Shown: positions 13,360 through 26,543 of the stretch, piece by piece
How positions within the stretch are numbered: position 1 is the first letter of the stretch
Layout of the letters: each line of letters opens with the position of its first letter
Virus record (IMG/VR): IMGVR_UViG_3300035428_000399
Location: 1-64,000 of that record
Source: a virus
Taxonomy: Duplodnaviria; Caudoviricetes
DNA: 64,000 bases
Direction: 5' to 3' (one strand)
Made by a program: the position numbers and the translations under genes
Notes under the pieces: model-generated
What the model was told of the DNA's origin: nothing
Database searches by the model: none
What the model saw: the letters and a program-made list of their open reading frames with translations, nothing else

Positions 13360-14102
13360 TAACGGATTACAAGAAACCGATGATTCAGGTATTCGAGAAA
13401 TACCGACACAAGTTTGAGCCTTATAGTCTGTTCGAGAGGTTCATGGAGTTTGTCATTACGGGTTTCGATATAACATTCTCGGCAATTGAGAGACCATTCA
13501 GCAAGGAAGAGTCGGAGGTGTGCCTGGAACTTCTCAATGTATGGGTAACATCAATGAACGAGGCTCTGAAACAAAAAGAGTGGTATGATCTACTCGGCGA
13601 TATGTATATGGATTATCTCTCCGGCACCATGAAGAAGCATTGGACCGGACAATATTTCACTCCTATGCACATCTGCGAATTTATGGCTAAAATTACAGAC
13701 CCTGGAGAAATAACCGATGAAAGGGTCATGGACTGCGCTTGTGGAAGTGGCCGTATGCTTCTCGCCTCACATATTCTTCATCCAGGAAATTACTGCTGTG
13801 CTCAGGATATGGATAGAATTTGCTGCCTTATGACTGTGTGTAATTTTATTATTCACGGAGTTAACGGAGAAGTGGTATGGGGAGACAGCCTCAATCCGGC
13901 TGATTATCGCGAAGGTTGGAGAACTAATGAAGCTCTAAACGTTCTCGGTGTTCCCTGTGTGAGGAAGATGGATAAAATGGAAGCCACGTCATATCTCAGC
14001 GGTCTCGCTATGCTGGCAGAGAGGAAAGAATCAGTCAAGATACCCGCCAGCAAAGCTGAAAAGAAAAAAGCAGTCGAACCCATTCAATTAAGTCTTTTTT
14101 GA
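13356..14102 (+). CDS. N-6 DNA methylase-like protein lacking catalytic motif IV
   Basis: GQYFTP and DCACGSGRML present; no NPP(Y/F) anywhere in the 248 aa. Confidence 0.75.
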   Translation: MITDYKKPMIQVFEKYRHKFEPYSLFERFMEFVITGFDITFSAIERPFSKEESEVCLELLNVWVTSMNEALKQKEWYDLLGDMYMDYLSGTMKKHWTGQYFTPMHICEFMAKITDPGEITDERVMDCACGSGRMLLASHILHPGNYCCAQDMDRICCLMTVCNFIIHGVNGEVVWGDSLNPADYREGWRTNEALNVLGVPCVRKMDKMEATSYLSGLAMLAERKESVKIPASKAEKKKAVEPIQLSLF

Positions 14103-14414
14103 ATGAAAAAGATTATCAATGTTTATGTCGGTACTGACCTGTCAATGACGACACCTACGCACCCGTTATCCTGCGCTACCGCAACCAAACGAATGATCGA
14201 CAAAATAGTGGGAATGCCAGATTCAAAGTTTGATATAAACACTAATTCTGAAGCCAGCATCAGGGTATTCCAGTTATATGGTCTTCATAAGGGGTTGACA
14301 ATAAACTTTCATATCAATGGGAAAAAGTCCTCTTACAAGGCCGTACTTGAGGATTTCAAACGAGCCGACAATTATATCAGAGAATTACAGAACCAAATAG
14401 AAAACGAGAAATGA
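14103..14414 (+). CDS. hypothetical protein
   Basis: tightly packed ORF. Confidence 0.6.
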   Translation: MKKIINVYVGTDLSMTTPTHPLSCATATKRMIDKIVGMPDSKFDINTNSEASIRVFQLYGLHKGLTINFHINGKKSSYKAVLEDFKRADNYIRELQNQIENEK

Positions 14415-14860
14415 ACCATATAGGAGAGTCCTCTTTTAAGTACATCATGCGCAAGTCTGGGCGCAAGCCAATTTCATGTCAGTGCGCGAAGTGCCAGTCA
14501 CAATGTCATACACCCTGTCTCGGTACTCCAGAAGATATTCTTAAAATAATCAAGGCCGGATATAAAGACCGAGTTGCTCCAACAGAGTGGTGGGCCGGAA
14601 TTATTATGGGAGTATGCAAGAAGCCCATCTATATGATTCAGGTCATCCAAGAGGAGAACGGTTATTGTACTTTCTTCCATGACGGGAAGTGCGAGTTGCA
14701 TGAACTCGGATTGAAGCCGACCGAAGGTAAGCTTTCTCATCATTCCATCAGAGCCGACAATTTCAACCCGAAAAAGTCCCTTTCGTGGCTTGTTGCCAAA
14801 GAGTGGCTCGAACCTAATCCAACAGAAATAGACGAGATTTGCAGAATGTTGCAAGAATGA
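14411..14860 (+). CDS. Cys-rich YkgJ-like metal/Fe-S binding protein
   Basis: CQCAKCQSQCHTPC and CTFFHDGKCELH...KP. Confidence 0.6.
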   Translation: MNHIGESSFKYIMRKSGRKPISCQCAKCQSQCHTPCLGTPEDILKIIKAGYKDRVAPTEWWAGIIMGVCKKPIYMIQVIQEENGYCTFFHDGKCELHELGLKPTEGKLSHHSIRADNFNPKKSLSWLVAKEWLEPNPTEIDEICRMLQE

Positions 14861-14879
14861 TTATTTTATAATCCCATGG

Positions 14880-14941
14880 CTTGCATATATGATTATTTAT
14901 GTTTATCTTTGCAAATGCAAATAAGATGAATTTAATCAAAA
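14880..14941 (+). promoter_or_regulatory. conserved promoter module, copy B
   Basis: CTTG 14880, 20-nt spacer, TATCTTTG 14904-14911, TGCAAATAAG 14916, TAATCAAAA 14933. Confidence 0.8.
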
Positions 14942-14953
14942 ACCGAACTTCAA

Positions 14954-15076
14954 ATGGAAACTCCAACTAACGAACAGAAACAAGCTGCGAATCAGCTTCG
15001 CAAGGAACTGAAAAAGGCGACCCCTTGTGTCTATCCCAATATATCCAGCATAGAACAATTTATAATGCAAGGATGA
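14954..15076 (+). CDS. 40-aa peptide (METPTNEQKQ...)
   Basis: ATG directly after promoter copy B; too short for the supplied ORF track. Confidence 0.45.
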   Translation: METPTNEQKQAANQLRKELKKATPCVYPNISSIEQFIMQG

Positions 15077-15158
15077 GCACGTCCCGAAAATCTCGATGTT
15101 CATCTTCTCTACGATTATCTCCTTTAGCAGGATATCTGCGAAGTTGAAGAATAAAGCC

Positions 15159-15518
15159 ATGAATTTCCACGATTTTTACGAGCCGCCGTTCTTCTCAGAC
15201 GAAGCCTATGTTTGGTCCAACAATGGCAATCTGGCACTGATGATTGCGGATATTTCCAAAGACAACACAGCAGTCCTGGACCGCCTTTGCCATATACTCA
15301 ACGGAGATATGGTGTCCGCCAAAAGTCCGGAGCTTGAGTATAAGGCCCCGGAGATTTTGCTGAACGGGCGTGCATTTCTTGTTATCAGAGGCCGTGGCTC
15401 TCTTGTAGAGAGCATTACAGACACCGACGAGTCGGCTTGTAAAATCCAGAATGACTTTGCGCATTGGGTAATCAGAAAACTGAAGGGCCATGATACAACT
15501 GTCGAACATAGATGCTGA
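15159..15518 (+). CDS. hypothetical phage protein
   Basis: ORF with A-rich start context (MNFHDFYEPPF...). Confidence 0.6.
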   Translation: MNFHDFYEPPFFSDEAYVWSNNGNLALMIADISKDNTAVLDRLCHILNGDMVSAKSPELEYKAPEILLNGRAFLVIRGRGSLVESITDTDESACKIQNDFAHWVIRKLKGHDTTVEHRC

Positions 15519-15687
15519 AAAAGTGTGCGTTCATCTTGAGAACAAACTGGCCTGCATGCGAGAGTCATTCAAATGTCGGAGCGAGGTCTCGACAAGTGAA
15601 TTTAATGAAGCTCGCCTCCTAGGACTTCTTATCAACAAAATCAACCGAAAATTAGATAAAGAGTGCCCTGACCGGCACAGTAAATAA
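15490..15687 (+). CDS. hypothetical protein
   Basis: overlapping, coupled ORF. Confidence 0.5.
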   Translation: MIQLSNIDAEKVCVHLENKLACMRESFKCRSEVSTSEFNEARLLGLLINKINRKLDKECPDRHSK

Positions 15688-15947
15688 TGAGATCACAGAC
15701 AGAAAAAGACAAACTGAGGTCGAGCGTGATAGACGAGCTTATTTCTGCTAAGAACTGGTTTACACTGGCTACTGACGAGAATAAGGTCAAAGTATTTTCA
15801 TGTACGGATGCGCCCACCCTCAAACGAGGAATAGTGAATATCATGCTTCAGGAGCCGGCCTATGCCAGTCTATTCGTAGATGCGGTGGGCGACTATGTGT
15901 CGATTATGAGGCGCCGAGAGATAAAAAATGGAATTTCATTAAACTAA
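15687..15947 (+). CDS. hypothetical protein
   Basis: TAATG coupling with the previous ORF. Confidence 0.55.
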   Translation: MRSQTEKDKLRSSVIDELISAKNWFTLATDENKVKVFSCTDAPTLKRGIVNIMLQEPAYASLFVDAVGDYVSIMRRREIKNGISLN

Positions 15948-15952
15948 TCATC

Positions 15953-16747
15953 ATGGCATTCAACGGGAAAGCAATTTACCAACCTAAAGGCCGTGCCGGG
16001 GAATACTCGGCGTGGGCCTGCAATTTTTATACCGGCTGTTCCAATGACTGTCAGTATTGCTATTGCAAGAGAGGCGTTATGAGCCATGTGTGGGACACTA
16101 AGCCCCATCTGAAGAAATGCTTCAGTAGCGAAGAAGACGCTTTGAGAGTCTTCACAGAAGAGGCTGTGAAAAACCTCGACCAGTTAAGGCAGAAAGGGAT
16201 ATTCTTTAGTTTCACAACGGACCCCATGCTCCCGGAAACTATAACGTTGACAAGTTGTGCTGTTGCAGCCTGCATGGAGTTGGATATACCAGTCAAGATT
16301 CTGACGAAACGGGCTGACTGGTTGCTTGAGTTGTCTTGCGACCCTGATAAGGCCAGGAAGTTATTGGCGTTCGGATTTACGTTAACCGGGCATGATGAAT
16401 TAGAGCCTCATGCTTCTACAAACATGGAACGTGTAAGAAAGATGCTCAATCTTCATAAAGACGGCTATAAGACTTTCGCGAGCATAGAGCCGGTTATTGA
16501 TGTGCCGACTTCGTATGCTATGATCAATGCCATATCCGGTTGGTGCGAGCTAATTAAGGTAGGTCTGCTTAGCGGCGGCAAGCGAACCTACAAGGAGGGA
16601 GAGGTAGAATTTCTATACGAAATGATATGGGGGGATACTCGCGGCAGTAAATTCTACATAAAGGATAGCGTCGTTAAGTATCTGGAGCTTGACCGCGCCA
16701 CTTTTCCCGACCATCTTGTAGACTCAAACTACAATATTTTCGCATAA
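15953..16747 (+). CDS. radical SAM protein
   Basis: CxxxCxxC (GCSNDCQYCYC), FSFTTDP, FASIEP. Confidence 0.85.
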   Translation: MAFNGKAIYQPKGRAGEYSAWACNFYTGCSNDCQYCYCKRGVMSHVWDTKPHLKKCFSSEEDALRVFTEEAVKNLDQLRQKGIFFSFTTDPMLPETITLTSCAVAACMELDIPVKILTKRADWLLELSCDPDKARKLLAFGFTLTGHDELEPHASTNMERVRKMLNLHKDGYKTFASIEPVIDVPTSYAMINAISGWCELIKVGLLSGGKRTYKEGEVEFLYEMIWGDTRGSKFYIKDSVVKYLELDRATFPDHLVDSNYNIFA

Positions 16748-16748
16748 T

Positions 16749-16943
16749 ATGAAAAGAAGACCGAAAATCACAATCATGTGGGGGCGTGTAATCGCGTCTC
16801 TGCTATCATATATCCTTTTGCCTATTCTGTTGCCGGTTACGATAATAGCGTCCATCTGCGAGAATATCCTGATAGCGTGGGGCCAGTTCAGGCATTGGAT
16901 AATCACAAAACTCGACATCAAAAGGACTAATCGACATGAATAA
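16749..16943 (+). CDS. small membrane protein
   Basis: hydrophobic core (VIASLLSYILLPILLPVTIIASI). Confidence 0.5.
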   Translation: MKRRPKITIMWGRVIASLLSYILLPILLPVTIIASICENILIAWGQFRHWIITKLDIKRTNRHE

Positions 16944-17355
16944 AATCGTACAACTCACAGACTATGAATATCAGCAGCTCAAAAAGGAAGCTGATATGAC
17001 CTGCGCCGCAATGGAAGCAGAGATAATGCGTGGCATCGAAGAACACAGCAAACTATCCGTTGACCTCAAACTCGATGTCGGACGCGACTGGGACGATGTG
17101 TTCCACATAAAGCCGGTAGTATATGTATCCTCATCTCACTATGACGCCGGGCAAGGATTCAATAAAGTAAAGTACGCCGTATCTTATGAAGCCTGCCGAA
17201 AGATTAGTAAGCACGTTGAGAGGTGGCTGGACAATCAAATCCGGACAAGATATAAGATTGACATCGACACAATAAACAAGTACAACGAGAGAATGAACAA
17301 TCAAGCCAAGTGGAATTATGCCTATGCACTCATAGCTCTTTCTATATTCCTCTGA
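16936..17355 (+). CDS. hypothetical protein with C-terminal hydrophobic tail
   Basis: coupled ORF. Confidence 0.6.
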   Translation: MNKIVQLTDYEYQQLKKEADMTCAAMEAEIMRGIEEHSKLSVDLKLDVGRDWDDVFHIKPVVYVSSSHYDAGQGFNKVKYAVSYEACRKISKHVERWLDNQIRTRYKIDIDTINKYNERMNNQAKWNYAYALIALSIFL

Positions 17356-17356
17356 T

Positions 17357-17626
17357 ATGGCACAGATAGTAAGCGAAGCTGCTGGCTTCAAGGTCGCAGA
17401 AGTGAGTCGAACTGAACTTATGGATAAATTGGGCCCTCTGGGTGCCGTGGGAGTCTGTGATTATTGTATGTCCCAACCCAAAATTGGCTATTACGTTGCA
17501 GTGCTCGACCAGTGGCTTTGCCCTAAATGTTATGACGAATTCATCAAAAATAACAGTCCAAACCCTCGTGACACATGGTTCGAGGACGAGAGGTTCGCAT
17601 GGTTCAAAACACAATTTCAACTATAA
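17357..17626 (+). CDS. zinc-finger-like hypothetical protein
   Basis: CDYC...WLCPKC. Confidence 0.65.
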   Translation: MAQIVSEAAGFKVAEVSRTELMDKLGPLGAVGVCDYCMSQPKIGYYVAVLDQWLCPKCYDEFIKNNSPNPRDTWFEDERFAWFKTQFQL

Positions 17627-17666
17627 CAGCCCTGGAGCGGCTAAATAAACTCCAATCAAAAATCAC

Positions 17667-18377
17667 ATGAAAAAGTATATTGGCAAAGAAGAGATTTCTG
17701 CAGAACCCATGACCTATGGGGAGGCATTCAAAGACGGCATTATTCCGGAGAACGCATACGTCGAAGAGCTCTCTGACAGTAAAGGGTACAAAATAGTCGG
17801 AGTCGACAAAGCTGTCGGCTGGTTACCCAAGGATGACTTCGAGTCTTTATATCGCGTAGCCGAAACGCACCTCGACCGCATCAACATCGAGGACAAAGAC
17901 CTGCGCGAGAAATGCTGTCGTCTCTCGGATTTCATCAACAACAACGATAAATTCAAGGGACTGTCTCTGGGGGACAAGGCTATGCTTGTGGCACAGTTCC
18001 ACATGATGAACGCTTACTCCAGCATTCTATCGCTGCGCCAGTCTACTATTGAAGGCGGCGTGAGTGGTCGCCCATACGGATTCTCCTTCGAGCAGGTACT
18101 TCCTCTCATACGTGAGGGATACGCAGTCCGACGTAACGGATGGAACGGAAAGGGGCTCATGGTGTTCAAGCAGATCCCGGCTCATATCGGCTCCGACATC
18201 ATCCCCAAGATGCAGTCCCTCCCCAACGAGGCCAAGAGGCTCATCCTGGCTCATGGGGACCACATCGACTATGTTTCTCAGTGCCTCATCTTCAATGCCG
18301 ATACCGGCGAAGCCAATTCGTGGGCGCCATCCATCAGCGATGTCTTTGCCAACGACTGGGAACTTGTCGTAGAGTAA
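17667..18377 (+). CDS. three-domain fusion: KYIG...WLPKDDFE domain + Acb2-like + Tad2 (DUF2829)-like nucleotide-sponge candidate
   Basis: aa 138-236 FSFEQVLPLIREGYAVRRNGWNGKG...WAPSISDVFANDW; aa 66-125 RINIEDKDLREKCCRLSDFI...AQFHMMNAYSSILSLR. Confidence 0.75.
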   Translation: MKKYIGKEEISAEPMTYGEAFKDGIIPENAYVEELSDSKGYKIVGVDKAVGWLPKDDFESLYRVAETHLDRINIEDKDLREKCCRLSDFINNNDKFKGLSLGDKAMLVAQFHMMNAYSSILSLRQSTIEGGVSGRPYGFSFEQVLPLIREGYAVRRNGWNGKGLMVFKQIPAHIGSDIIPKMQSLPNEAKRLILAHGDHIDYVSQCLIFNADTGEANSWAPSISDVFANDWELVVE

Positions 18378-18560
18378 ATGTCCCGGGCACTCAGCACAAC
18401 TGCTCATTGTCTAATCTATCGTCTAAGGAAGAAAGGTATTCGCGTAAACACTAAAGAGCGAGTAATCTTTCTCCCTTACGGCGAGAAGATTGATGACTAT
18501 ATACAAATTGTGCGGTTGCATAGAGAATTTTATTTGAATGTTCAGTTTATAATAACTTAA
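18378..18560 (+). CDS. small basic hypothetical protein
   Basis: LIYRLRKKGIRVNTKERVIF. Confidence 0.6.
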   Translation: MSRALSTTAHCLIYRLRKKGIRVNTKERVIFLPYGEKIDDYIQIVRLHREFYLNVQFIIT

Positions 18561-18562
18561 CT

Positions 18563-19207
18563 ATGAAACGAGAAAAAGACTTCTTTGAGTGCTTTATGGA
18601 TGTTGAAGATGATTATCTGCCATCTTTTTGTCATAAGGCTTTTTATAAGGACGGTTATGTCGTGGCAACAGATAGAATTATTCTGGTACGAGTCCCATAT
18701 AATAGCTTGGAAGGTATATATGACAAAGAGGATACACCAAAGAAATTGCCAATCTTTCCTGCACCAAATTGCAACTTACATCTCCCTCTTTCAGTACTGG
18801 TAGACACAATCAAAAGCATTCCTGCAGAAGAAATGGTGTCAGTGGAAGGAGCTGCCGCAGAATGTGACGAATGCGAAGGTACTGGTTTAGTGGAGTGGAC
18901 CTATGAAGATTGTGAAGGTAAAGAGCACCTTGAAAACTTCGATTGCCCTATCTGTAATGGTTGTGGCCGTGTGAAAACAAAGAAATATCACAGGGAATGG
19001 AGGTGTATCTCTATAAATGGCTCCATCTTCTCAGTTCGTCCTCTAATGAAATTGGCTAAAGCAATGGATATAGCTGGATTTGATTCAGTGAACGTCAGAA
19101 ATCTACCACAAGAACCTACTCCAGCATTGATGAGCTTAGACGGTGGAATTGATGTTATCATAATGCCGTGTCCGGATGCTAAGCCAATTCGAGATATTAA
19201 GTTATAA
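18563..19207 (+). CDS. beta-clamp-like fragment with inserted CxxCxGxG zinc finger
   Basis: VVATDRIIL, CDECEGTG...CPICNGCG, C-terminal VIIMP. Confidence 0.55.
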   Translation: MKREKDFFECFMDVEDDYLPSFCHKAFYKDGYVVATDRIILVRVPYNSLEGIYDKEDTPKKLPIFPAPNCNLHLPLSVLVDTIKSIPAEEMVSVEGAAAECDECEGTGLVEWTYEDCEGKEHLENFDCPICNGCGRVKTKKYHREWRCISINGSIFSVRPLMKLAKAMDIAGFDSVNVRNLPQEPTPALMSLDGGIDVIIMPCPDAKPIRDIKL

Positions 19208-19225
19208 AATTGAATCAAAAATAAT

Positions 19226-19711
19226 ATGGGAGTATCAATAAGAGCGCTCAAACCTACTGAGTATGTTGCCGAAATAACAGCCGATTATATTGATGGTTGT
19301 AAACCAATATATACACTTGACTTCTCACCGATAAAGCACCTTACGCGTTTCAAAGAAGGATGGTATAAATATGAGGCATCTGGAAAAGCTAATCTATCAA
19401 TATCGTGTAGCACCTTAAATGACTTCCGAAGGGTATTGTGTGGTCAGGTACATGGAGATTGGGATGATTATTGTCTCAAAGTAGAAACCGGAGAGGAACC
19501 TGATAACGGCGCATTTGCGGAGTTCCTTTACTTTGCAGACAATGAAGGTTGTTTCGATTATTCAATTGCGGAGAAACTTTTTAAAGATTTCGAGAAGTAC
19601 AGAGACAAGATATATCCTACACTAAATAAATGGTATCGATGGTGCTATGATGTTTATTACCACATACTCAATGAATGTGTGGAATGTAGAGGTGTGGTCT
19701 ATTACTCTTAA
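19226..19711 (+). CDS. hypothetical phage protein
   Basis: AFAEFLYFADNEG motif; packed ORF. Confidence 0.6.
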   Translation: MGVSIRALKPTEYVAEITADYIDGCKPIYTLDFSPIKHLTRFKEGWYKYEASGKANLSISCSTLNDFRRVLCGQVHGDWDDYCLKVETGEEPDNGAFAEFLYFADNEGCFDYSIAEKLFKDFEKYRDKIYPTLNKWYRWCYDVYYHILNECVECRGVVYYS

Positions 19712-19713
19712 GT

Positions 19714-20382
19714 ATGAAAAAGATAATGTTCTCAGATAAATTCGGACTCACCGAAGCCGTATTGAGCGGTCGGAAGACACAGACGAGACGGATAGTGCCT
19801 CAAAAAGTCTTAGATAAGGCATGTGAGTTTGCGATAGCGTACTTCAACGAAACATTTGATGTATTTGCAGACGATAAAGAGGTTTTACAACATTACTTCT
19901 TTGTAGAGAAGATTGGCAAACTCCCCTATGCAGTCGGCGAAGTAGTAGCCATAGCGCAAAGCTACAAGGATTGTGGATATAGCTCTGATGCTATTGACCG
20001 AAGTCCAAAAGATTGGAGAGATATCAGAGGTACTTTGGGAGAGTCCAAAGGATGGAACAATAAGATGTTTGTGAGAAGTGATTCTTGCAAGCATCATATT
20101 CGCATTATCAACGTGCGAGTGGAGCGGTTGCAGGATATATCCTACGAGGACTGCTTGGCTGATGGTGTCTATATTTTAGATGAAGATCCGATGAACCCAC
20201 AGGCATATATTCACTCGTTCCCTAATTCACCTGAATCATACTATCATCCCCGCGAAGCCTATGCCGCCTTGACAGACCGCATATCCGGCAAAGGAACTTG
20301 GGAGTCCAATCCGTATGTATTTGTTTACGAATTTGAATTAGTGGAGATTTTCAATTACAGAAAGAAGAATGGCACAACCTGA
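19714..20382 (+). CDS. ASCH/PUA-like phage protein
   Basis: AVLSGRKTQTRR...WNNKMFV...VRVERLQDIS...WESNPYVFVYEF. Confidence 0.75.
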   Translation: MKKIMFSDKFGLTEAVLSGRKTQTRRIVPQKVLDKACEFAIAYFNETFDVFADDKEVLQHYFFVEKIGKLPYAVGEVVAIAQSYKDCGYSSDAIDRSPKDWRDIRGTLGESKGWNNKMFVRSDSCKHHIRIINVRVERLQDISYEDCLADGVYILDEDPMNPQAYIHSFPNSPESYYHPREAYAALTDRISGKGTWESNPYVFVYEFELVEIFNYRKKNGTT

Positions 20383-20617
20383 AAGCAATGGACTGTTTGA
20401 GGTCAATTCCAACCGCAAGGTCGTAGAAAGGGGTTTCTTCTGTATGATGTTAATTGATTTCCTCAATGAAGAAGTCTCAATGGGTACAGAAGAATATGCG
20501 AATTTGTGGAAGGAGAGGTTCGACCAAGCAAAAGCCGGCGGTTGCGCCTATCGGGAGAAATGCCCCATCTATTCCAAGACAGTTAAGAATAAACCAATAC
20601 AACTCAAACTCTTTTAA
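20369..20617 (+). CDS. hypothetical protein
   Basis: coupled ORF; CAYREKCPIY; ends QLKLF. Confidence 0.55.
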   Translation: MAQPESNGLFEVNSNRKVVERGFFCMMLIDFLNEEVSMGTEEYANLWKERFDQAKAGGCAYREKCPIYSKTVKNKPIQLKLF

Positions 20618-20618
20618 T

Positions 20619-20846
20619 ATGACACCAGAAAAGGCATACCTTATTGGTCGTCTCGGCGGTTACGGTGCCGCGTCTATGCTGTTAGCCGCAATCCTCACCT
20701 GGTGTTCTACCGGGAAGAATGCGTGTGAACCACAGCCAATCCATTATAAAGTGCCGCAGGCCCATATGGAAATGCATGCGCGCATGATGGCAGGACAGCG
20801 TCAACTTATAATTTCAAACAAGACTGATGAAAGCACTGACGATTAA
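20619..20846 (+). CDS. small membrane or exported protein
   Basis: hydrophobic N-terminal segment followed by Cys. Confidence 0.45.
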   Translation: MTPEKAYLIGRLGGYGAASMLLAAILTWCSTGKNACEPQPIHYKVPQAHMEMHARMMAGQRQLIISNKTDESTDD

Positions 20847-21218
20847 GCAGCCGTGGGCCGACCTCATTATTGCCGGCGTCAAAGATATAGAGAATCGTAC
20901 ATGGAAAAAAGCTACCGTGGGCGTGTCCTCATACATACATCAAAATCGCCGTGTTCACGTGGGGATCTTGACGCTTACCCTCTTTCAGCACTTTCAGAGA
21001 ATATCAATCTTGACAAGTATGCTCCTGGTCGATTTACCAATGGAGCAATTATAGGCAGCATTGATATCGTGGACTGCGTAATGAACCATCCTTCTGAATG
21101 GGCCGAGAAAGGAGTCTACAACTGGGTTTTGGCAAACCCAGTGAAATTTGAGAAGCCAATCCTTAATGTCAAGGGTCTGCTGGGCTTGTGGGATTATAAA
21201 GGAAATATTAACAACTAA
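20827..21218 (+). pseudogene. ASCH domain gene split by a 1-nt frameshift
   Basis: MKALTIKQPWADLIIAGVKDIENRTWK in one frame continues as SYRGRVLIHTSK...KGLLGLW in another; break at the A6 run 20905-20910. Confidence 0.8.
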
Positions 21219-21388
21219 GCCGAGACACCCGCTAAAAATCAGTCGTCTACACTCTGCCGGTAGTGATTGCCCTACATAGAACGGAAGAACAGACCTACCG
21301 CATAAGTCCTCGCCAGCGCAATTTCAGTACGAGATACCAATGGCCTCGGAAGGTCGCGGGAAGTAGGCGGCGGGAAATCGGCATTTTT
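21219..21388 (+). ncRNA. candidate structured RNA / leader of the radical SAM gene
   Basis: GCCGA/TCGGC and CCCGC/GCGGG close the whole interval; internal helices; T-run 21384-21388. Confidence 0.4.
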
Positions 21389-21399
21389 AACTAACAATC

Positions 21400-22476
21400 A
21401 TGAAAACAGAACAGAGTAAGTTCTCAGTCCTTCGCGGCCGACGTCAGGAAGACTTTCATGCAGAGAACTACACTACGAAGCCGTTTGTGTTTGACGGCAT
21501 ACAGAAATCAGTCTATGACAATGCGAATCTATCGATATTTGTCAACGAATCCTGCAACGCAAATTGTAAGTTCTGCGTCGATCAGTTGCGCTTCGAGGGA
21601 AAAGGGAAAATGTTTGTCAAGGGGAGATTGTCAGACGATGAAGAATACTTCGCACGTCTTGAGGAAGTTCTTCATACGTTGCGCCCTCTCAATACTTCAA
21701 TCTCGATAACCGGCGGCGAGCCCACGAAATCGCCCCGTCTTCCTCGCATCCTACAACTGGTATCGAAGTACAATTTTAGAAAGAGGGTAATCACTACCAA
21801 CGGTAGTGGGCTTCTTGATGTTGTCGCCGGGAAACGCGTAATAGACCATATAGTCGAGAACGAATTCCATCATCTAAACATATCCAAGACGCATTACCTG
21901 GAGAACGTCAACGCGGAGGTCATGCAGTTCGACAATAGCTATTTCACGAATGAGCAAATGGCAGAGGTCGTGGAGATAGCAATGTCGGGAAACGTGCGCC
22001 CACGATTGAGTTGCCTTCTCTTGAAGAGCGGAATCCACGATGTCGAAGGAATGATGCGCTATCTGGACTTCTTCAGCGCGATGGGAATAGACAATATCAT
22101 CTTCAGAGAGACGATGGATTATGACAAGTCTGCGATGCACAACTTACCGAAATTGCGCTTTCTCGAAGAGAATAAGATACTTCTAAACGACATGTGGAGC
22201 CAGATAGACCTGATGCCAAGCATATTCAAACCGATAGTGCAGGTATTGGGCTATTACTACTATTGCGAGGTCTACAAGTACAAGGGCATCGACATGGTGA
22301 CGGAGAGTGCAAATCTCGCCGCCATCGACCCACAGAAAGCCAAGGCTCCGGATACGGTCTTTGAAATGGTATTCCACCCTAACGGCAATCTCAATGGCTC
22401 ATGGATAGAGGACGAAGATGTGCTTCTCCATTATGCCGGCAACAGCTGTATTAGCTATTCAAATCGAATTAAGTAA
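21400..22476 (+). CDS. radical SAM protein
   Basis: CNANCKFC, SITGGEPT, ITTNGS. Confidence 0.9.
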   Translation: MKTEQSKFSVLRGRRQEDFHAENYTTKPFVFDGIQKSVYDNANLSIFVNESCNANCKFCVDQLRFEGKGKMFVKGRLSDDEEYFARLEEVLHTLRPLNTSISITGGEPTKSPRLPRILQLVSKYNFRKRVITTNGSGLLDVVAGKRVIDHIVENEFHHLNISKTHYLENVNAEVMQFDNSYFTNEQMAEVVEIAMSGNVRPRLSCLLLKSGIHDVEGMMRYLDFFSAMGIDNIIFRETMDYDKSAMHNLPKLRFLEENKILLNDMWSQIDLMPSIFKPIVQVLGYYYYCEVYKYKGIDMVTESANLAAIDPQKAKAPDTVFEMVFHPNGNLNGSWIEDEDVLLHYAGNSCISYSNRIK

Positions 22477-22913: not shown

Positions 22914-22999
22914 CTCATATGCAAATAAGATATCTAATCAAAAATCCGACAAGATGCTTTCCCTAAAGAGCGCATCAGGGACTCAAAATTAAATATCAA
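22883..22999 (-). ncRNA. candidate trans-acting antisense sRNA (5' end approximate)
   Basis: minus-strand promoter at 23005-23036 and minus-strand intrinsic terminator at 22883-22913; body complementary to repeated gene-start motifs. Confidence 0.65.
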
Positions 23000-23115: not shown

Positions 23116-23146
23116 TTGCGTAACTCCCGATTTTTGATTAACTTTG
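23116..23146 (+). promoter_or_regulatory. promoter of the ParB/methyltransferase cluster
   Basis: TTG 23116-23118, 20-nt spacer, TAACTTTG 23139-23146; TGATTA/TAATCA boxes nearby. Confidence 0.65.
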
Positions 23147-26008: not shown

Positions 26009-26067
26009 TTTGCGTAATTGATTAAATTTCAGTATATTTGTAGTTGCAAATAAGATACTAATCAAAA
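26009..26067 (+). promoter_or_regulatory. conserved promoter module, copy C
   Basis: TTTG 26009, 20-nt spacer, TATATTTG 26033-26040, TGCAAATAAG 26045, TAATCAAAA 26059. Confidence 0.8.
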
Positions 26068-26072
26068 ACAAA

Positions 26073-26543
26073 ATGGTCGAAATAGAATATTGCTACTTCC
26101 GCAATACCTACAAAATAATATGGTTGCGGTACGTCTATGGAGTAGACCTCAACACGCACTGCATGAAAAGTCTTCTTGGGCACAATGACAAACGTGTCAA
26201 AGGCTTTATGCGGTCTCTTCCTCCCAACATGGAATTGGAAGAAAGCAGGTTCTACTATCTCTGCGGAGTCGATAAGGATTTCAATTGGAACAAAAACCTC
26301 CATATTCCCTTTGTCCGCAGTGTGGGACAGACTCTTGAGATTGACAACGAGTTTGTCAAAATCAAGATTAACAATGCCCGAATGATTCACATTGATACGA
26401 GCTACATCAATTGGAATCTTCCGCAAGCCCGAAACAAGCTCTTCAACACCTGCAGGAATTGGCAGTTTGCGAATATGCTGGCGTCAATTCCCAGTGTGCC
26501 ACAAACTCCTACACAATCCCAATTAGGACTTTTCGATAAATAA
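26073..26543 (+). CDS. uncharacterised Cys/His-motif protein, paralog of 41311-41814
   Basis: WLRYVYGVDLNTHC, YYLCGV, NLHIPF, NTCR. Confidence 0.7.
   Translation: MVEIEYCYFRNTYKIIWLRYVYGVDLNTHCMKSLLGHNDKRVKGFMRSLPPNMELEESRFYYLCGVDKDFNWNKNLHIPFVRSVGQTLEIDNEFVKIKINNARMIHIDTSYINWNLPQARNKLFNTCRNWQFANMLASIPSVPQTPTQSQLGLFDK

Follow-up and report, generated by a model that had tools for sequence, protein, structure and literature searches.

A gut Bacteroidales provirus encodes a putative counter-defence protein that joins Sequestin and Tad2 sponge domains to a widespread N-terminal phage module

The gene and its genomic setting

The window, that is, the whole stretch of DNA analysed here, comprises positions 1 to 64,000 of the IMG/VR record IMGVR_UViG_3300035428_000399, and the record containing it consists of an 89-kb provirus only. 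On the plus strand of the window, an open reading frame running exactly from the ATG at 17667 to the end of the TAA stop codon at 18377 encodes a protein of 236 aa. Homologues of this protein also begin with MKKYIG, which indicates that the start codon at 17667 is correct. In the full-length model (pLDDT 88.7) the protein folds into three separate domains, all encoded on the plus strand: a five-stranded SH3/Tudor-like β domain of an unnamed phage family (aa 1–63, 17667..17855), referred to hereafter as the N-module, a Sequestin domain (aa 66–124, 17862..18038) and a Tad2 domain (aa 140–234, 18084..18368). The original prediction had placed a three-domain protein here; its coordinates proved exact, and the three modules were recovered by Pfam, the structural model and the family profile. 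Its description of the protein as a candidate multi-domain anti-defence sponge was borne out as well, with two genuine sponge domains and a third conserved phage module found.

The gene lies in a dense block of small accessory genes on the plus strand. The stop codon upstream is at 17626, and the following ATG at 18378 directly adjoins the TAA. From 15096 to 21218 the neighbours match only PHROGs of unknown function and weak Pfam families, so that an ‘anti-defence island’ around the gene receives no support from them. Megablast of positions 14000–22000 against cultured phages gave no match. Upstream, the ORF at 15950–16747 (plus strand) carries a weak radical SAM/DUF5131 signature (E 1.4e-4, under the cut-off). 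Two genes downstream, a 214-aa ORF (18563–19207, plus strand) with CxxC...CxxC motifs has a weak HYR_4C match and corresponds to phrog_20807, annotated as function unknown.

The central domain is a Sequestin

The assignment of aa 66–124 to the Sequestin family PF21825 (crAss001_48) is based on Pfam, BLASTP and the structural model. The Pfam match (E 1.3e-12) scores 47.9 bits against a cut-off of 24.8, and the excised segment scores 52 bits. BLASTP of aa 65–129 against SequestinA, whose sequence was taken from Table S1 of 10.1101/2025.07.12.664507, gave an ungapped alignment with 38% identity (E 1e-10). In the model this region forms a hairpin of two helices, residues 68–92 and 101–130, with pLDDT above 90. 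All four ligand residues of SequestinA, R8, E12, Q47 and R61, are kept as R71, E75, Q110 and R124, respectively; in 24 homologues of the window's protein E75 is invariant and the other three are nearly so. The domain thus shares with the Sequestin family, which includes SequestinA and phage T4 Y16O, the HMM and the helical hairpin, and with SequestinA the conserved R8, E12, Q47 and R61. In contrast to stand-alone Sequestins of about 65 aa, however, it is internal, flanked by two other domains.

Sequestin is a dimeric sponge that sequesters 3'cADPR, the type I Thoeris signal, by means of a two-helix hairpin forming an antiparallel dimer (10.1101/2025.07.12.664507). Tal et al. discovered it when looking for Pfam families that occur as fusion partners of Tad2 and Acb4; PF21825 was the commonest, with 60 and 91 fusions, respectively, and proteins in which Sequestin is joined to Tad2 or Acb4 work as sponges (10.1101/2025.07.12.664507). 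In SequestinA, the substitutions E12A, Q47A and R61A abolished activity. Type I Thoeris was blocked by 10 of the 13 PF21825 proteins tested, three being inactive, whereas type II Thoeris, 3'3'-cGAMP CBASS and Pycsar were unaffected by any of the 13 (10.1101/2025.07.12.664507).

This segment had originally been described as a crAss001_48-like helical hairpin resembling Acb2. The hairpin and its kinship with crAss001_48 stand, as both PF21825 and the model attest, whereas the equation of crAss001_48 with Acb2, a sponge of CBASS signals, does not. No Acb2 chain was matched at E≤10 in searches of PDB sequences with either the protein or the family profile; Sequestin chains gave no match among the PDB sequences searched. 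We accordingly rejected the Acb2 identity of aa 66–124 and assigned the segment to PF21825, a separate dimeric family. The proposed CBASS block through an Acb2 domain falls with it, given that the segment is a Sequestin and that 0 of 13 tested Sequestins inhibited CBASS. Since the middle domain is not Acb2, any blockade of CBASS would need the second pocket of Tad2.

The Tad2 domain retains the gcADPR pocket and a conserved insertion

A Tad2 domain of the long-insertion type (PF11195/DUF2829) occupies aa 140–234 according to Pfam, PDB sequence and Foldseek searches, and the DUF2829/Tad2 signature originally noted at aa 138–236 is thereby confirmed. The Pfam match has E 2e-16 (60.7 bits, cut-off 25), and a DNA-level scan of the record returned identical coordinates. 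In the PDB sequence search the domain aligned without gaps over 94 aa to SptTad2 (8wjd, E 7e-13) and also matched HgmTad2/AcrIIA7 (8kbi, E 6e-12). Foldseek placed 8wjd, 8kbj and 8kbk at the top (TMt 0.67–0.72), with E 6.5e-8 and TMt 0.72 for 8wjd and TMt 0.71 for 8kbj; ModTad2 and SPO1 Tad2 appear among the lower matches, and entries 9eib, 8sme and 8v3e also match. Thus, in the comparison with Tad2 that had been proposed as a check, both the profile and the fold agreed.

Pocket residues were mapped by reading the PDB-search alignment against the HgmTad2 residue lists in 10.1101/2023.11.15.567273. Structures of HgmTad2 show gcADPR and cGG bound in dedicated pockets, and W21/N22 and S90/T92/D93 of the gcADPR pocket have been validated by mutation (10.1101/2023.11.15.567273). 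This pocket is kept in the window's protein: W21/N22/G23 correspond to W159/N160/G161, W87 to W219, and S90/T92/D93 to S222/S224/D225, with a single Thr-to-Ser replacement. The second pocket, which takes cGG and cGAMP, is present only in some Tad2 proteins, where it is made by a long insertion between β2 and β5 and includes R31, S47, F70 and N85; R31A/N85A abolished cGG binding (10.1101/2023.11.15.567273). Here S47, F70, N85 and L36 of HgmTad2 correspond to S184, Y202, N217 and I174, and the guanine-reading Arg31 is replaced by Gln169, which is invariant in the homologues. Across the 24 homologues (54–87% identity), V166–Q169, I174, P180, M182 and S184–P186 are invariant, and no other part of the protein family is as well conserved as the insertion.

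Such conservation of the insertion suggests that the second pocket probably binds a further nucleotide, conceivably a cyclic dinucleotide, for example the c-di-GMP of Bacteroidota CBASS. Its specificity, however, may be altered, as the guanine-reading Arg has become Gln. Of the original idea that a single polypeptide blocks both Thoeris and CBASS through two sponges, the CBASS part is consequently left to the Gln169-bearing Tad2 pocket alone.

Overall, the domain resembles in fold (TMt about 0.7) HgmTad2 (AcrIIA7, 8KBI–8KBM) and SptTad2 (8WJD), two long-insertion Tad2 sponges from phages of Bacteroidota. It has an insertion identical in length to that of SptTad2 and keeps the gcADPR residues and most of those in the cyclic-dinucleotide pocket. 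It differs from HgmTad2 and SptTad2 in sequence, with identity of only 26–33%, in having Gln169 in place of Arg31, and in being fused behind two domains.

The N-module belongs to a large phage family

The N-module was delineated with hhalign, the structural model and a profile. Modelled alone with AlphaFold, aa 1–65 form a small five-stranded barrel with two short helices (pLDDT 88). No Pfam family matches aa 1–63, which do match PHROGs bearing the N-module either alone or with Sequestin and Tad2. A profile built from 22 N-modules of related viral loci retrieved 3,769 clusters (50% identity) at E≤1e-3; together with the independent folding of the segment, this upholds the view that aa 1–63 are a third conserved phage module. 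By comparison, only two matches came from a word-indexed search aimed at short N-modules standing alone, and tblastn among cultured relatives found only five phages of Bacteroides and Parabacteroides.

The N-module is nearly always N-terminal. Among the top 149 of the 3,769 cluster representatives, domain profiles recognised nothing further in 59 proteins, Sequestin in 54, both Sequestin and Tad2 in 21, Tad2 in 12 and a tandem arrangement in three; the N-terminal N-module directly adjoins Sequestin in 75 and Tad2 in 12. Pfam applied to the same 149 found PF21825 in 67, PF11195 in 41 and WDGH (PF25311) in two. Free-standing N-module genes also exist (e.g. L087). In one metagenomic locus (L088:518-727 and downstream), an N-module and a Sequestin are in the same frame with a stop codon between them; the gene could be split there, or the stop codon could stem from a nonsense mutation or from an error in sequencing.

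Phages N4 and CB1 carry homologues. Aligned with hhalign, the N-module profile matches gp49 of phage N4 (Prob 98, E 1.3e-13) and gp68 of Pectobacterium phage vB_PatP_CB1 (Prob 96.5, E 9.7e-10, 57 columns), the latter described in a June 2026 preprint as RyR Tad (10.64898/2026.06.04.730250). In the crystal of RyR Tad, the N-domain forms a domain-swapped dimer that completes a five-stranded sheet (10.64898/2026.06.04.730250); the five strands modelled in aa 1–65 correspond to this dimer sheet. The N-domain alone (gp68_N, aa 1–86) was without apparent effect on type I Thoeris, the sole system tested (10.64898/2026.06.04.730250). The N-domains of RyR Tad, N4 gp49 and the window's protein are homologous and have the same N-terminal place directly adjoining a sponge domain, but the C-terminal partner is RyR or Tad2 alone in the former two, whereas the window's protein has both Sequestin and Tad2. 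In the BFVD, fold matches of the N-module reach TMq 0.74–0.84, among them an RyR-domain protein of Yersinia phage TG1 (TMq 0.81).

Among the 149 diverse representatives, the aromatic residues Y4, Y41, Y45, Y49, W52, F58 and Y62 reach a conservation of 90% or more; P54 is likewise near-invariant in the family. The window's N-module, which is acidic, keeps about 13 of the 18 positions conserved at this level in the family and departs from the consensus at K8E, Y45G, G48K, Y49A and S51G. N4 gp49 keeps all five of these near-invariant residues and CB1 gp68 keeps four, its G48 being Glu.

Several candidate identities for the N-module were rejected or not adopted. Acb4 (PF13876) gave no match at E≤10, nor was it found among the 149 relatives, and hhalign against a bona fide Acb4, Ab09 gp59 (PF13876, E 1.6e-23), returned E 0.7. 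Sequence and profile comparison with Acb2 and Acb4, which the check proposed at the outset had also named, was thus negative for both (Acb2 at E≤10). A likeness to the OB-fold of phage L Dec (6E3C), hinted at in a methods note from the Sorek laboratory, was weak and was not adopted: hhalign aligned 24 columns (E 0.044, Prob 1.2), Foldseek gave E 1.0 and TMq 0.44, and Dec is absent from the top 50 of both VIA structural-match lists. The descriptions of TadIV-1 and Lockin give no sign of kinship to the window's protein. Against PDB sequences the N-module produced only noise (E>1), and Foldseek on the PDB found no match at E≤1e-3.

Distribution and published fusions

The three-part architecture is common. 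A search at E≤1e-3 recovered it from 1,056 protein clusters, and the best 120 of these are aligned over their full length, all but one having both Pfam domains. The relatives include proteins from Muribaculaceae and Lachnospiraceae MAGs annotated only as DUF2829. Among viral contigs, the architecture is present in at least 418 IMG/VR loci, and the exact 236-aa protein is encoded on 427 contigs.

Fusions of sponges have been reported before. They comprise Tad2–PF21825 in an element of Comamonas sp. 26, Acb4–Tad2 in Pasteurella phage Pm86 and Acb4–Sequestin in Pseudomonas phages YH6 and Ab09 (gp59); moreover, fusions of the N-module with Sequestin are present in the Sequestin table of Tal et al. 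(10.1101/2025.07.12.664507). Like the window's protein, the published fusions place two sponge domains on one polypeptide, and in the Pseudomonas Acb4–Sequestin proteins a domain of about 65–85 aa at the N-terminus immediately precedes the Sequestin, a layout similar to the one here. The window's protein differs in that its N-terminal domain is not Acb4 and in having three modules rather than two. The gene is therefore not a new kind of counter-defence gene: Sequestin–Tad2 fusions are published, the three-part form is abundant, and the architecture is not new.

Other arrangements of the N-module were seen in the course of this survey. In phage N4 (L085), gp48 (133–501) is a strong match to PF13876 (Acb4) and gp49 (504–983) consists of an N-module and Tad2; the two form a two-gene sponge cluster adjoining the virion RNA polymerase gene. 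Elsewhere the N-module is joined to WDGH (PF25311) in proteins P0142 and P0196. In P0205, P0221, P0228 and P0236 it is followed, with or without Sequestin, by a C-terminal domain without a Pfam family, and in P0164 and P0177 it is likewise fused to domains outside the known sponges. Because the same logic of fusion uncovered Sequestin, these non-sponge C-terminal partners are candidate new anti-defence modules.

Proposed function and alternative explanations

Judged by its sequence, the protein is a credible, putative counter-defence gene product containing a fused immune-signal sponge. From the domain identities, folds and conserved ligand residues, together with the homology of the N-module to a dimerizing domain, we infer its binding properties, oligomeric state, role in vivo and target system in the host. 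We consider it likely that Sequestin and Tad2 sequester gcADPR made by TIR proteins and so disarm type I Thoeris, with the N-module serving as a dimer interface. During infection or induction, the protein would oligomerize through a Tad2 tetramer and antiparallel Sequestin dimers, with the N-module contributing an extra dimer interface. The oligomer would then sequester the TIR-made gcADPR signals, and the second Tad2 pocket would probably take up a further nucleotide. Depletion of the signal would keep the type I Thoeris effector from firing. Of the Tad/Acb homologues tested, about a quarter showed no activity in the assays employed. Aimed at the same signal class, the two sponge domains look redundant; His-ADPR, N7-cADPR and cUMP are reported ligands of Tad2 homologues, and one of the two domains may therefore have another specificity.

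HgmTad2 has been deposited as ‘Inhibitor of Type II CRISPR-Cas system/AcrIIA7’ (8kbi, 9kzr), and these entries are among the closest solved relatives of the window's Tad2 domain (E 6e-12 and 1e-11, respectively), so that an AcrIIA7-like inhibition of type II Cas9, instead of or besides a sponge function, has to be weighed. We regard it as very unlikely: HgmTad2 itself binds gcADPR and cGG in dedicated pockets (10.1101/2023.11.15.567273), the gcADPR pocket is conserved here, and the presence of a second Thoeris sponge in the same protein favours sequestration of signals. For the N-module, an analogy with RNA polymerase-interacting domains would make it a Tudor-like module through which the sponge attaches to RNA polymerase, as in CarD and Mfd. 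Indeed, its best match in structural alignments (VIA-align) is the Mfd RID (6m6a_M, Z 5.6, rmsd 1.6, 50 aligned residues), and the N-domains of CarD and CdnL and the C-terminal Tudor domain of UvrD follow with Z 3.9–4.8. In the calibration of VIA-align, however, Z below 8 falls in the range of generic fold resemblance, identity to these domains is 8–14% with no sequence-level relation found, and the RyR Tad structure explains the N-domain as a homodimer interface (10.64898/2026.06.04.730250), all of which makes docking to RNA polymerase extremely improbable.

A more serious, although still unlikely, alternative to a dimer interface is that the N-module is a third ligand-binding or anti-defence domain directed at a signal or host factor outside the assays performed so far, such as His-ADPR, N7-cADPR, Pycsar cNMPs, cyclic oligoadenylates or Panoptes decoy nucleotides. 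The N-module recurs before Sequestin, Tad2, RyR and WDGH and also stands alone, and the same reasoning by fusion uncovered Sequestin (10.1101/2025.07.12.664507). Its seven aromatic positions are conserved more than a fold usually needs, its barrel is of the Tudor/SH3-like type, in which aromatic cages are often used, and gp68_N was assayed only against type I Thoeris (10.64898/2026.06.04.730250). That the aromatics are so strongly conserved between distant phages suggests a role beyond that of a passive dimer interface. Weighing against a ligand-binding role, gp68_N showed no apparent inhibition of type I Thoeris and forms a dimer interface in the crystal (10.64898/2026.06.04.730250), the N-module is acidic rather than having the positive pocket typical of sponges, and the window's copy is without K8, Y45, G48, Y49 and S51, so that any site formed by them would be altered. 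The original prediction had taken fusion to two sponges as a sign that aa 1–63 also bind a signal; the apparent inactivity of gp68_N against type I Thoeris and the erosion of this copy at conserved tyrosines speak against that. Given its kinship with the RyR Tad N-domain, which is domain-swapped, the N-module is most likely an extra homodimerization and scaffold element. Taking the family as a whole, we also entertain, with considerable doubt, the notion of an unrecognised and very large phage counter-defence family that acts either as a sponge or binder for an unassayed signal or as a universal adaptor setting the oligomeric state of many unrelated sponges. If this were so, the C-terminal domains fused to the N-module, namely WDGH and several without a Pfam family, would be new sponge families.

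Significance

The protein is a further example, from a gut Bacteroidales prophage, of the increasingly numerous multi-domain sponges for immune signals, and its analysis corrects a tempting mis-annotation, crAss001_48 being Sequestin and not Acb2. In practice this is of modest value, both sponge domains and their fusion having already been described. Few partners of phage sponges are as widespread as the N-module, which is found even in the model phage N4, while the support behind its role so far consists of one structural observation and one negative assay, both on RyR Tad (10.64898/2026.06.04.730250). Once worked out, that role would throw light on the way phages build and tune their sponges, and fusion to the N-module could flag new sponge domains.

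A repeated leader motif upstream of the start codon

Just upstream of the start codon, the sequence AATCAAAAATC (17654..17664, plus strand) ends 2 nt before the ATG at 17667. By exact 11-mer count, it occurs in three copies in the window versus 0.15 expected, the other two being at 22936–22946 (plus strand) and 23129–23139 (minus strand). The original prediction had pointed to a sequence in the start region that matches an sRNA candidate, and the copy at 17654–17664 agrees with this. The 11-mer is also found both inside and beside the region proposed there as a candidate antisense sRNA. Leaders resembling AATCAAAAAT(C/A)-NN-ATG precede three gene starts on the plus strand, 17667, 19226 and 26073, at 17654–17669, 19213–19228 and 26060–26075, respectively. 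With up to two mismatches allowed, the leader motif has six matches versus 0.9 expected; it could be a translation-initiation leader shared by genes of this Bacteroidales phage, or an sRNA target.
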